Source: Chrysomallon squamiferum (taxonomy: Eukaryota > Animalia > Mollusca). From it: 64,000 nt of DNA. The stretch is taken from NCBI GenBank assembly GCA_012295275.1, contig CM022675.1, positions 5,084,001 through 5,148,000 of the forward strand. Direction: 5' to 3'. Made by a program: the position numbers and the translations under genes. Positions 30,629 to 64,000 of the stretch are shown one piece after another. The notes under the pieces were generated by a model. That model did not search any database and had not been told where the DNA came from. It saw nothing but the letters and a program-made list of their open reading frames with translations. Each line of letters opens with the position of its first letter. The first letter of the stretch is position 1.

Positions 30629-31341
30629 CATTAAATTTATCAGTATATAAGTCACTAAACATAACCAAAACTAAACACACACAAATATACATATATCTGT
30701 CTCTGCCTGTTTTATTTCTCTCTCTTTCTCTCTCTGTTTACACATGCACACAGACTAACAGACAGAGAGAGACTAGGAGAATTATGATTGTGTCTGTCTC
30801 TCTCTGTTTTTATGTATTTGTGTCTCTCTGTTTCTCTTATCTCACATACACAGAGACAGAGAGAGAGAGAGAAAAAAAAGAAATAGAGAGAGAAGTGTAA
30901 ATGTGTTTGTGTGTACAATCTCTTTCTTTCTATGTTTCTCTCTGTCTTTCTCACACACATACTCAGACACACACACACAAACACACACACAAACACGAAT
31001 ACACACACAAACACACACACACACACACACAAAACACGAATACACACACATACACTATAATTTATTTTGTTTTCTATTGCGTCTTCTGCCCTACTTTGCC
31101 GTAGACTTTGTCATGCGCGAGTTTATCTAAAACAAGTTTTATTTTTATCACACAGATACACTACACTGTTCTATAACTGAGTAAACAAGGGAAGGAAAAA
31201 CCTGTTACGATCCTAACAACAATCTTTTACTCTTTTAATCTTTTAATCTTTTACTCTTTTAATCTTTTACTCTGTTATCTTCTTCCTGGTCTGGACCACG
31301 TTATTTATACATAGAAGTTTAAACGTCTCGAAGAATCCGCC

Positions 31342-31414
31342 ATGTTGTCTACAGCTGTCGATATTTTTATTATTTTCTTTGTGTGTGTGTCACCTACCCA
31401 GTCAGAAATATTAA
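31342..31414 (+). pseudogene. Orphan duplicated exon 1 (signal peptide) of the lectin/WSC receptor family
   Basis: ccgccATG...MLSTAVDIFIIFFVCVSPTQSEIL then a phase-1 gtaagt donor. Nearly identical to 34535-34604; upstream 30890-31340 matches 34140-34530. Confidence 0.75.
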
Positions 31415-31433
31415 GTAAGTAGATTTTACATTA

Positions 31434-60750: not shown

Positions 60751-60781
60751 CAAAGTAAAAAATAAAGTAAAAAACAGTTCA

Positions 60782-63700
60782 TTATGTATTACAAAATGGT
60801 CGATGTTACCCTCATTTTTGTGTGATCTGTCCAAAGTAAAAAACAGTTCGGTGTCAGACTTGACAACTCTACTGTCACAGCGAGAACAAAGCAAATACTG
60901 GGTGGGTCTGCAGAGAAAGTCTGAATGGCGATGGATCGACGGTAATAAAATTATTACATCGTGTTATTAATTAATTTATTTATTAATTTTTCTTACGAAT
61001 AAAATTTTATCTAACAAATATTTGTATTTACGAATGTAATGTATGTATTTTATTTATGTGTATATGTATATGTGTGTATGTGTTTATGTATGTATATATG
61101 TAATGTATGTATTCATATTTTTATTTTGTATTGCTGACTTATTAGGAATGTTATATCTCTGATGTTATATTATATTATATTATATTATTTTATATTATTG
61201 ATATCATAGGCTATAATTCTGGTAAATTTCGTGTTAATCAAAATCTCAAACTGTTATGGGCATGATCCTTGGCTAAATATCTGGATTTTGGTATTTTATG
61301 GAATTCTTTTTCTGACATTATAAACATCGGTCAAATTGTTGCTGAAATCTTGTGCTCTAAGGACCATATTGTCAATATTGTCCAAACATGTCAGATTTCG
61401 CTGGCTGTTATATCCTGAAGTACTGGTCCGATGAAGACAGTATTTGAAATGTAACCTTTTGAAGCCAGAATAGTTTTATCAAAGTGTGAATAGGTCGGTT
61501 ACAACCAGTGAATGAACTAACATGTATGTGTCTGAATGATGTGTGTGTATGTGTGTGTGTATGTTTGTGTCTGTATGTGTATATGTATGTGTGTGTAAGT
61601 ATTTGTGTCTATATGTGTGTGTATATATTTGTTTGTGTCTGTATGTATTTGTTTGAATATTCTTTGTCTTATGCATCTGAATAGACTCTGTGTAGTATTC
61701 GGGAATGTCTGTATGTGTGTCAGTGCCGCTACGATTTTTAATATTCTCTGTCCTATGTATTTGTCAGATTAGTGTCTTCATACAGTAATATTCGGGAACG
61801 CACTGTGTTTGTTTGAAGTATAAAGTGTCTGTATGTGTGTCTGTGACAAACCCGTATGATGTGTCTGACGTGTACTGTCGGTATGTGTGTGTGTCTATAT
61901 GAGTGACTGTATATGTGTCTCTATGTGTATAATGTATGTGTGCCTGTATGTGTGTCTGTGTGTGTGTGTCTAGTGTGTGTGTCCGTATGTGTGTATCTAT
62001 ATGTGTATCTATGTGTGTCTGTATGTATGTGTGTTTGTGTTTGTATGTATGTATATGTGTGTATGTATATGTGTCTGTGTATATATCTGTATGTATGTAT
62101 GTATGTGTGTCTGTATATGTATGTATGTGACTGTATGTGTGTCTGTATGTGTGTTTGTATGTGTATGTATGTGTGTATGTATGTGTGTGTATGTGTATGT
62201 GTGTATGTGTGTCTTTATGTGTATGTGTCTGTATGTGTGTCTATATATGTGTGTATATATATGTGTGTATCTATGTGTGTGTGTCTATATGTATGTATGT
62301 ATGTATGTGTGTATATATGTGTATATGTATGTGTGTGATGTGTTTAGGTATCTGTGTGTGTATTTGTGTAAGTATACGTATATGTATATGTGTATGTGTG
62401 TCTGTATGTGTGTCCTGTATGTGTTGTGTACGCAGTGGTATACAGTTGTGTTAGTAATATCAGAAGAATCTGCGACGTCTGATTTGAAGTGACAGCAGTG
62501 GTGTGGTAGTAGTTGTTTTAATTTTGAAATGTTGATGTATACGTCTTTTTAATCAGAAAATAATTTGATTTCATATACAGGTGAAGATTTTTTCGGCAGA
62601 TTCCGATTATTCCAATAACGAAAAACAGGAAAGCTTTGTGTTGAAAAAAGAATCACGTTATTGGGGATACAAAATGAAGTGGTATGTTTCTTCATCAGAT
62701 GTGAACCACAGTGTGGCATGTCAAAAGTGTGAGTATCGTGTACACACAAACAATAAACAAACAAACAAACAAACAAACAAATAAGTGTTCGTTACTCAAC
62801 ATCTCCACTAGAAAACCTATAAACAATTATAAACAATTAATTATCATTATTTTTATTATTATTATTATTATTATTATTATTATTATTATTATTATTATTA
62901 TTAAGATTGTTAGTGTTGTTGTTGTTTTGTTCCTGTTTTTTGTAATTGTTTTCTTCATCCTTTTTTCAACATATTTTTCTCAGTTTTTTTTTTCTCAGTT
63001 CTTTCTTCATTATTCTTGTTATATGGACATCTCTCCCGTTTAGATTCTGACTTGCTTAACTTTATTGCAGATAAAAACACAAAATCTACAGCAAAGGCAT
63101 CGTCAACAACTGCAGAATCCTCAACTACTACAACAAACACGAAAACCCAAATTCGATGACTTCAGCACCTGAGAAAGAGTTACCACAGTTTACTACAGAG
63201 AACACGAGTCCAGTGTCAACTTCTCAGTCAAACAAAAGGGACATAACTCCACCTAAAAGCAGCGCACAGGCTGACAACAGACAAAACATACCAGGTTAGT
63301 TTGTTAGTATTTATTAGTTTCTTCGTAATCAAACAGATGTTACGTGTAAAATAATAATAATAAAATACTATAATTTTTTTTTTTAGCACTTGCTGGTGGT
63401 GGTGTTGCTGCTGTCGTAGTAATATTATTTGTTGCTGTTGTGATTTTACTGTGGACTAAACGGTACTTTTTTTCTTCTTTTTTTTTTTTTTTTTTTTTTT
63501 TTGTTCATTAAATAATAATAATAATAATAATAATAATAATAATAATAATAATAATAATAATAATAATAATAATAATAACTGAATAATAACTGAATAATAT
63601 GAAATATTCCACTGTGTTTGTATATATGTAGGTATGTTTGTTTCTACATATATGTAGTATACAATTTTTTTTTAATTTTTAATTTTAATTTCTTCTCAGA

Positions 63701-64000
63701 ACACATCGATTTTGTTTTAAAACTCAGAAGTTACCAGAATCAAGAATTAATTTTAACAAAAGAAACAATGAAACCAATTCTGCTGAAGATTTACAACGCG
63801 GTCACACAAATCCGAGTTATGAGGTAACAACGACATCGACGTCGGCAGACTATGAATTTGAATCAGAAAATCAAGGAAACCACAGTGTTTACTACAACGT
63901 CCCAAGCGGAGTTACTATCAACATGGAAAACAGAAATGTTAAACGACTTCCAAATAACAGATCTACTGCTGACGACAACGATGACGACTACGACAGAGCG
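60782..64000 (+). pseudogene. Lectin/WSC receptor copy E, 5'-truncated, runs off the window
   Basis: Exon 6 remnant to 60941 (CDLSKVKNSSVSDLTTLLSQREQSKYWVGLQRKSEWRWIDG); exon 7 62581-62728 (+1 in T run, ends SVACQK); exon 8 63071-63294 (-1); TM 63387-63462 ([26 protein letters not shown]); tail from 63700 open to the window end. Confidence 0.85.
61525..62430. repeat. Degenerate (TG/TATG)n low-complexity tract in copy E intron 6
   Basis: Direct observation. Confidence 0.9.

Follow-up and report, generated by a model that had tools for sequence, protein, structure and literature searches.

In the snail Biomphalaria, clusters of genes for single-pass membrane proteins control parasite resistance (PMC7494358), and the available text of two studies describes whole-gene insertions and deletions in such clusters (PMC7494358; PMC10875847). 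The lectin-like receptors of the vertebrate natural killer (NK) complex are type II proteins with one CTLD (C-type lectin-like domain), as stated in the accessible part of PMC2704933. For bivalves, the available text of Saco et al. (2023; PMC10140915) mentions the WSC domain once, among bivalve-specific C-type lectin (CTL) architectures with a proposed immune role. Pattern-recognition receptors are expanded in Gigantopelta aegis according to PMC7895826, whose available text describes no CTLD-WSC architecture, and two other sources, in the text at hand, merely list WSC-domain annotations (PMC4581086; bioRxiv 10.1101/2023.01.19.524809). Few surface receptors linking recognition to signalling are defined in molluscs. 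Here we analyse a stretch of 64,000 nucleotides (nt) from Chrysomallon squamiferum (assembly GCA_012295275.1, contig CM022675.1, positions 5,084,001 to 5,148,000, forward strand), in the following called the window, which has the composition of animal DNA rich in AT and microsatellites and carries related genes for lectin-like receptors with tyrosine-rich tails. Very probably they represent a real, expressed gastropod family, the most distinctive features of which are a WSC domain predicted to be nested inside a CTLD and a mosaic evolution at the level of exons, neither of them named in the title of the original prediction.

Probable receptor genes on the forward strand

The original prediction placed related multi-exon genes on the forward strand of this window, and a profile of the family, built solely from 33 database proteins and containing no window sequence, finds them there. 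Of 1971 six-frame stop-free fragments, 12 match the profile with E-values of 8e-19 to 9e-6 and better, all of them on the forward strand and within 34721-60967. Twelve matches on one strand and in one region indicate related genes far beyond chance; no fragment to the left of position 30890 was matched in the same scan. The copies and isolated exons are the following.

31342..31414, forward strand: orphan exon 1 of the A type (signal peptide), 95.7% identical to exon 1 of copy A
34535..35727, forward strand: copy A, a relic; exon 1 at 34535-34604, exon 2 at 34782-35000, membrane exon at 35275-35330 (out of frame and too short by 20 nt), tail at 35382-35727
39300..45033, forward strand: copy B, 10 exons; 39300-39366, 40132-40355 (1 nt short), 40568-40704, 41063-41192, 41419-41553, 41770-41973, 42298-42426, 42791-42865, a disrupted membrane exon at about 43655-43779, and a tail at 44330-45033 with late frame shifts
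49923..58366, forward strand: copy D, 10 exons, closest to intact; 49923-49989, 52987-53211, 53299-53435, 53831-53955 (one extra nt at 53933), 54235-54375, 54727-54948 (exon 6, GA acceptor), 55769-55927, 56258-56506, 57559-57634, 57874-58366
50761..50817, forward strand: truncated extra exon 2 within intron 1 of copy D, 17 of 18 residues identical
60778..64000, forward strand: copy E, partial; exon 6 (5'-cut) to 60941, exon 7 at 62581-62728 (one nt too many), exon 8 at 63071-63294 (one nt missing), exon 9 at 63387-63462, tail from 63700 past the end of the window

Against the family profile, exons 1-7 of copy B give an E-value of 2.6e-79, copy D 3.7e-81, exon 2 of copy A 8e-19, and exon 6 of copy E 1.2e-12. 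The exon plan consists of a signal exon (1), the first half of the first CTLD, CTLD1 (2), the WSC domain (3-4), the remainder of CTLD1 (5), a second CTLD, CTLD2 (6-7), a Ser/Thr stalk (8), a membrane helix (9), and the tail (10). Introns are in phase 1, apart from those preceding exon 4 (phase 0) and exon 10 (phase 2), and the phases agree between copies, whose exons were placed by hand and their frames checked. For the exon edges placed, 51 of 52 lie at AG/GT, a figure that is partly circular since such sites guided the placement. Four paralogues sharing one 10-exon structure had been proposed; the phases do match, but all ten exons are present only in copies B and D, copy A having four (1, 2, 9, and 10) and copy E five (6-10). 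Likewise, copy A does not extend to 35899, as its stop lies at 35727, and the claim that the genes are invisible among the open reading frames is only partly right, since 8 exon-containing frames of at least 90 residues appear when read from stop to stop.

Transcription is indicated by spliced RNA contigs, two of which were found when contigs from three runs (X2, X3, and X5; two RNA runs from one study and one run of unrecorded kind) were compared with 49800-56560, i.e., exons 1-8 of copy D. One of them splices exon 1 (49928-49988) to exon 2 (52987-53211) and the other splices exon 6 to exon 8 at GT..AG sites; a contig linking the membrane exon with the tail, both situated beyond the stretch compared, was not seen. 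In addition, RefSeq isoforms of relatives omit exactly exon 2, 5, 6, 5 plus 6, or 7. These gaps coincide with exon segments, which confirms the exon plan independently and agrees with the skipping of exon 7 in the RNA contig.

Relatives were collected with phmmer, the query being P0001, a protein of Gigantopelta, against 1.84 billion representatives; a full HMMER search was necessary as word-based homologue searches returned P0001 alone. It gives 57 matches at E <= 1e-3, some of which are merely generic lectins, and 9 at E <= 1e-10. The 21 of these 57 that were looked up comprise seven proteins from Gigantopelta aegis, five from Haliotis rufescens, three from H. rubra, two from H. asinina, one each from H. 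cracherodii and Lymnaea stagnalis, and two others. The named relatives are annotated as "uncharacterized" or "unnamed", and the Lymnaea entry is called a C-type lectin domain protein in UniRef. Six of the seven G. aegis loci are found on records that share a longest contig of 35.4 Mb and all five H. rufescens loci on records sharing one of 67.9 Mb, which suggests one chromosome each, that is, placement on the same chromosome rather than adjacency. The relatives are thus multi-copy, which excludes any one described gene as a one-to-one orthologue; spliced contigs and CTLD/WSC profile matches exist as well, so that none of the three outcomes named as refuting the original prediction is seen. Its statement that the family cannot be assigned to a named gene stands insofar as the proteins are uncharacterized, although they already exist as RefSeq entries. 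Among these, LOC121385519, LOC121385366, LOC121385671, LOC124111981, and LOC124137087 from Gigantopelta and Haliotis belong to the same family, with colinear domains, and share exon modules and tyrosine-rich tails with the window copies; unlike them, the window copies have lost two CTLD2 cysteines in exon 7 and have a nearly identical exon 2 in common. For metagenome contigs, none of 64 pattern matches was confirmed.

In a tree of 23 rows, in which long branches were flagged, B and D are sisters (99/94) and group with LOC121385519 and LOC121385366 of G. aegis (99/97). The genes of H. rufescens, H. rubra, and H. cracherodii, together with one of the two from H. asinina, form a separate, unstarred group (88/95). 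The tree contains lineage-specific groups of copies.

Predicted ectodomain and tyrosine-rich tail

In copy D, the modules of the receptor are arranged as follows.

52987..53211, forward strand: exon 2, N-terminal half of CTLD1 (Lectin_C, E 4.6e-4)
53299..53955, forward strand: exons 3-4, WSC-like region with a CGG motif, predicted to lie within CTLD1 (exon 4 of copy B, WSC, E 0.0045)
54235..54375, forward strand: exon 5, predicted C-terminal strands of CTLD1, colinear with residues 204-253 of P0001
54727..55927, forward strand: exons 6-7, CTLD2 (exon 6, family profile E 1.6e-17; exon 7 unmatched)
56258..57634, forward strand: exon 8, Ser/Thr stalk (38% Ser plus Thr), and exon 9, membrane helix (19 residues with a hydropathy of 3.14)
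57874..58366, forward strand: exon 10, cytoplasmic tail of 163 residues with 11 tyrosines, disordered in the model of protein P0002

A hydrophobic leader in exon 1 and the membrane helix in exon 9 make these type I proteins. Among 16 exon peptides, Pfam finds Lectin_C three times and WSC once, always below cutoff; among 22 relatives, it finds Lectin_C in 14 (E <= 0.01, above cutoff in P0001), WSC in 12 (two above cutoff), and both in nine. The family profile matches yeast Wsc1 (7pz2) with an E-value of 1.3e-12 at profile positions 92-178, and the best matches in the PDB for positions of about 226-332, corresponding to CTLD2, are Ly75, Ly49, NKR-P1, and CD69, with Ly75/DEC-205 on top. Together with the structural models, these profile matches uphold the earlier assignment of CTLD, WSC, a single membrane pass, and a tyrosine-bearing tail. 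Immunoglobulin (Ig) families are absent from the Pfam scans, and the modelled ectodomain is explained by CTLD, WSC, and CTLD.

The AlphaFold model of P0002, a full-length relative, based on an alignment of 33 rows, is confident over residues of about 35-345, with a predicted local distance difference test score (pLDDT) of mostly 85-96 in the ectodomain. It presents, in this order, a strand-helix-helix-strand unit, the WSC region, three strands, a second CTLD, an unstructured stalk, and one helix (419-446), followed by the disordered tail. With Foldseek, Wsc1 (probability 1.00, template-modelling (TM) score 0.64 by target) and Kremen are returned. In the Atlas model of P0001, all eight rows for residues 97-204 are WSC domains (TM 0.62-0.66), and the whole protein matches a single CTLD across residues 18-266 with 143 residues aligned (TM 0.51 by target), both with scores below the bar at which the service names a domain. 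A single-sequence AlphaFold model of P0001 (pLDDT 34.5) was useless.

The WSC domain is thus predicted to be nested in CTLD1, just after the strand with the pattern W-x-G...W-x-W, and we take this insertion point to be the place where the calcium- and sugar-binding loop of a CTLD normally begins. The placement rests on colinearity, profile positions, secondary structure, and the Atlas matches rather than on a domain-by-domain superposition. In line with it, exon 5 carries a C-x-Y..C..C pattern conserved in the family and corresponds to strands at residues 202-231 of the P0002 model. Exon 7 is the most divergent exon (23-26% identity), with a single cysteine left in B, D, and E. The WSC domain of B and of the Gigantopelta and Haliotis rows keeps six of the eight canonical cysteines, which form four disulfides in a WSC domain, and lacks the first and the sixth; in yeast Wsc1, these two pair as C27-C86 in the available text of PMC9024836. 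D and P0001 have one extra cysteine elsewhere, and the Lymnaea protein P0012 as well as P0032 keep all eight. In P0032, the CTLD-WSC-CTLD unit occurs twice in tandem, with all eight cysteines in its WSC domains, and P0012 combines a repeat stalk of great length with a short tail, so that the CTLD-WSC module is found in other arrangements too.

The tails were studied as a set of 15, three from the window (A, B, and D) and 12 from the 21 relatives, the other nine having no predicted helix or no tail of more than 60 residues. They are 100-370 residues long, with 5-24 tyrosines in acidic contexts. The tails of the window contain 9-11 tyrosines and a repeat unit S-[DEN]-[VLI]-Y-[NS]-x-L, 5-8 residues, D-Y-[DN]. 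All 15 tails contain Y-[NSD]-x-[ILV], with 54 occurrences in total compared with 8.4 in shuffled sequences, and the paired pattern Yxx[ILVF]-x5-9-Y[DN] occurs 15 times compared with 1.7, so that the tyrosines stand in non-random contexts; these patterns were chosen after inspection of the tails and internal repeats inflate the counts. To judge by its sequence, the tail resembles a phosphotyrosine scaffold with multiple sites and a spacing similar to that of an immunoreceptor tyrosine-based activation motif (ITAM), the tyrosines being putative phosphorylation sites.

Mosaic copies and their surroundings

Copies B and D are mosaics, nearly identical in exon 2 and very different in exons 3-7. In exon 1, 64 of 67 nt are identical, and in exon 2, 221 of 224 (99%); none of the 51 codons compared in exon 2 differs synonymously, and its block of identity reaches about 35 nt into the upstream intron. 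Exons 3-7 show 26-52% protein identity with saturated synonymous sites (pS, the proportion of synonymous differences, 0.71), and in exons 9-10 the synonymous divergence (dS) is 0.18-0.28. B and D as recent duplicates were considered and rejected, as their sister grouping dissolves once exons 1-2 are removed; B, D, and LOC121385519 of G. aegis are then unresolved in a 10-row tree. A design in which a shared leader serves variable cassettes was rejected as well, since B and D each own an exon 2. The simplest reading of these sequences is that old ectodomain lineages would have undergone recent conversion or unequal exchange at both ends; alternatively, the mosaic may reflect a mis-join in the assembly. 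In run X5, the summed contig depth reaches 7470 and 6529 in the bins over exons 1-2 compared with 211-2076 over exons 3-7, which hints that many copies share exons 1-2 but gives no copy number and is not used as evidence here.

The orphan exon 1 sits in a duplicated upstream block, 30852-31433, which resembles 34101-34623 (76% identity). Copy A lacks exons 3-8 and has a (GA)92 tract at the gap, and the stub of exon 2 belongs to a stretch, 50727-50817, that is 97.8% identical to 52953-53043. Two further features adjoin the receptor genes.

31430..34009, reverse strand: pogo/Tc5-like DNA transposon between the two copies of exon 1, with 36-nt terminal inverted repeats
59790..60745, forward strand: CCCTAA-rich (telomere-like) block that adjoins the cut 5' end of copy E

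The transposase of the pogo/Tc5-like element is split over three frames, with BrkDBD, HTH_Tnp_Tc5, and DDE_1 above cutoff. The second block contains 24 copies of CCCTAA compared with at most two per 4 kb elsewhere, is interstitial and situated in a longer degenerate repeat, and stops precisely at the cut of copy E. It may be satellite DNA, a break that has healed, or a join made in the assembly. Inverted repeats of about 110 nt (40384-40491 and 41977-42083, 95-96% identity) flank exons 3-6 of copy B, and those at 46473-46583 and 46784-46894 (95-96%) resemble a small non-autonomous element. Between B and D, at 47794-48398, a garbled tandem array of 48-50-nt units looks like a poorly polished long-read consensus, which suggests low local accuracy of the assembly.

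The left part of the window holds fragments of a hAT-family transposase at 535-1559 (Dimer_Tnp_hAT above cutoff), an older segmental duplication (2082-6705 and 24958-27758, 85-93% identity) that contains exon-like pieces and is not related to the receptor family, and complex minisatellite arrays at 12351-13560 (68/55-nt units), 14088-15416 (101-nt units), and 17699-18768 (43-nt units). An isolated exon-like stretch at 17310-17467 is similar to the thrombospondin type 1 repeat, with a Pfam E-value of 8.5e-4 that falls short of the cutoff.

Function and relation to known systems

The explanation that we favour, with modest confidence, is a gastropod family evolving by birth and death, a reading of the original prediction that holds, whose members would be type I recognition receptors that signal through tail tyrosines and probably bind microbes or foreign cells. 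For its parts, a signalling recognition receptor is likely, whereas the chances of an immune or microbe-recognition role seem about even; such a role is favoured by copy turnover and by analogy with the single-pass gene clusters of snails, as described in the available text of PMC7494358 and PMC10875847. In such a receptor, the Ser/Thr stalk would lift the CTLD-WSC-CTLD head, and surfaces of the WSC domain and the CTLDs might contact a surface ligand, probably one of microbes or foreign cells, without a classical calcium site. Clustering of the ligand would expose the tail to a kinase, and SH2 proteins might then dock on the phosphorylated tyrosines of a receptor that is itself non-catalytic. 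The repertoire could be built by duplication, gene conversion at the level of exons, and in-frame exon skipping. A bolder version, speculative and rather unlikely, is a so far undescribed combinatorial receptor system of gastropods with a diversified repertoire to tell microbes or symbionts apart. There, the WSC domain would have replaced the sugar-binding loop of a lectin domain, conversion would graft a shared half-domain encoded by exon 2 onto ancient, divergent WSC/CTLD cassettes, exon skipping in frame would multiply the forms, and a paired-tyrosine repeat other than an ITAM would signal.

Several results weigh against the favoured explanation and are given here with the alternatives to which they are relevant. 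In the 15 tails, the canonical ITAM, Yxx[IL]-x6-9-Yxx[IL], is found once compared with 0.3 expected (p 0.22), and it is absent from tails A, B, and D of the window, B having one match at a spacing of 11; the tail also fails the ITAM definition quoted in the available text of an Alr preprint. The corresponding inhibition motif (ITIM), which like the hemITAM is a signalling motif of NK-complex receptors, is weakly enriched in the set (12 compared with 6.7, p 0.036), and its single matches in B, D, and E are not above chance. The ratio of substitutions gives no signal of positive selection either, as nonsynonymous divergence (dN) does not exceed dS in exons 3-10, where dS is saturated in the ectodomain; the term "diversifying" used earlier for this cluster therefore applies to divergence and not to selection. 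In orthologue pairs of H. rufescens and H. cracherodii, the ectodomain is 91-95% identical and no more variable than the tail. Finally, EPN or QPD and WND are the calcium and sugar motifs of the long loop and strand 4 of CTLDs. They are absent from 13 exon peptides and from P0001, the only similar motif being "WID" at the end of exon 6 and in another position. As these motifs are missing, carbohydrate binding, which had been deduced from the folds, does not follow from the CTLD fold.

Some of these observations suit a family of receptors for cell-cell recognition or adhesion that bind protein ligands of the animal itself, for example in neural wiring, gametes, epithelium, or shell matrix, and have no immune role. 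CTLDs without sugar motifs, the missing signal of positive selection, and the conserved abalone pairs would all be expected of them, and the WSC domain of Kremen binds the protein Dkk1 while Wsc1 is without a glycan pocket, according to the available text of PMC9024836. On the other hand, lineage-specific groups of copies, relics, and exon mosaics would agree better with rapid turnover than with a developmental ligand that is fixed. Of the alternatives this one survives best, and we nevertheless consider it unlikely.

A different objection concerns the locus and leaves the family itself undisputed: the window might hold mostly dead copies or mis-assembled sequence, the working genes being situated elsewhere in the genome. 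As assembled, none of the window's copies is intact; microsatellite, transposon, or CCCTAA blocks mark the points at which A, the stub of exon 2, and E are cut off, and there are several breaks in B. The spliced contigs differ from D in 2 of 61 letters (exon 1), 13 of 225 (exon 2), and 20 of 161 (exon 8) and, being 88-97% identical to it, possibly derive from other copies or alleles; contigs matching introns occur in the same RNA run, which weakens the evidence for transcription. However, copy D is open throughout exons 1-10 but for the extra base at 53933 in exon 4. This base is absent from X2, X3, and X5, so that the frame shift is probably an assembly error, and one RNA contig otherwise equals exon 4 of D. 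Similarly, exon 2 of B and exon 7 of E are each broken by the change of one base at a short homopolymer run, a pattern typical of errors in long reads. A mostly dead or mis-assembled locus thus seems improbable, although the cluster is partly relic and error-prone. YxxPhi motifs act in sorting. Endocytic or scavenger receptors resembling the mannose receptor or DEC-205, in which the tail tyrosines would be such sorting signals instead of SH2 docking sites, are very doubtful, for although Ly75/DEC-205 is the best PDB match of CTLD2 and hydrophobic residues are enriched at position +3 of the tail tyrosines, the length of the tails and the number of their tyrosines would exceed what sorting needs.

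If the recognition receptors that we favour had no immune role, they would still constitute an uncharacterised multi-copy receptor family of moderate interest. Several copies of the family are present in abalones, which are kept in farms and open to experiment, as well as in a vent snail with symbionts, and databases give the family no name. Surveys of immune genes that count domains would tend to miss it or to draw it wrongly, because exon-wise Pfam matches stay below cutoff and the insertion splits CTLD1. A CTLD whose ligand loop is occupied by a WSC domain is a new binding design that can be tested, and the repeated tail motif offers a testable handle on tyrosine signalling in invertebrates.

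In the open-access literature, no description of this receptor family was found, and its proteins are so far catalogued in RefSeq as uncharacterized proteins. The bivalve proteins with CTL and WSC resemble it in combining both in one uncharacterized mollusc protein; they are compared by description only, and the available text mentions neither nesting nor clustering, a membrane helix, or a tail, nor does the term "WSC" occur in the one supplementary file of PMC10140915 that was searched. No named bivalve and no Biomphalaria is among the 21 of 57 relatives looked up, and the comparison with the polymorphic transmembrane clusters (PTC) of Biomphalaria is one of descriptions, no PTC sequence having been compared. 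PTC1/GRC and PTC2, as well as the B. sudanica clusters with CTL, FN3, Ig, and TMEM154 genes, consist of clustered, divergent single-pass genes as found here. PTC1 and PTC2 are also marked by extreme allelic divergence and by their association with resistance to parasites; the contigs used for the window derive from mixed copies. In the available texts, however, PTC2 genes have no known domain beyond the membrane helix, in contrast to the CTLD and WSC of the window family, the B. sudanica clusters carry FN3 and Ig, and "WSC" occurs in neither of the two Biomphalaria main texts.

Ly49, NKR-P1, and CD69 of the NK complex are, like the receptors of the window, encoded in clusters and have CTLDs without calcium motifs, but the latter are type I proteins that combine a WSC domain with two CTLDs and have a C-terminal tail of considerable length. 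Yeast Wsc1 and vertebrate Kremen share the WSC fold with its CGG motif, and a Ser/Thr stalk and a single membrane helix are present in Wsc1 too; unlike in Wsc1, the WSC domain of the window family is inserted in a CTLD and has six of eight cysteines. CREP of gastropods and Alr contain domains of the Ig superfamily, none of which was found in the window family. Hydractinia Alr, in the available text, is similar in its clustered single-pass genes and pseudogenes, one exon per module, alternative splicing, and tyrosine-bearing tails, and differs in its Ig and Fn3 domains and its canonical ITAMs, neither of which was found in the window family. The family therefore lies outside the NK complex, PTC2, CREP, and Alr, and resembles clustered lectin-like immune receptors.

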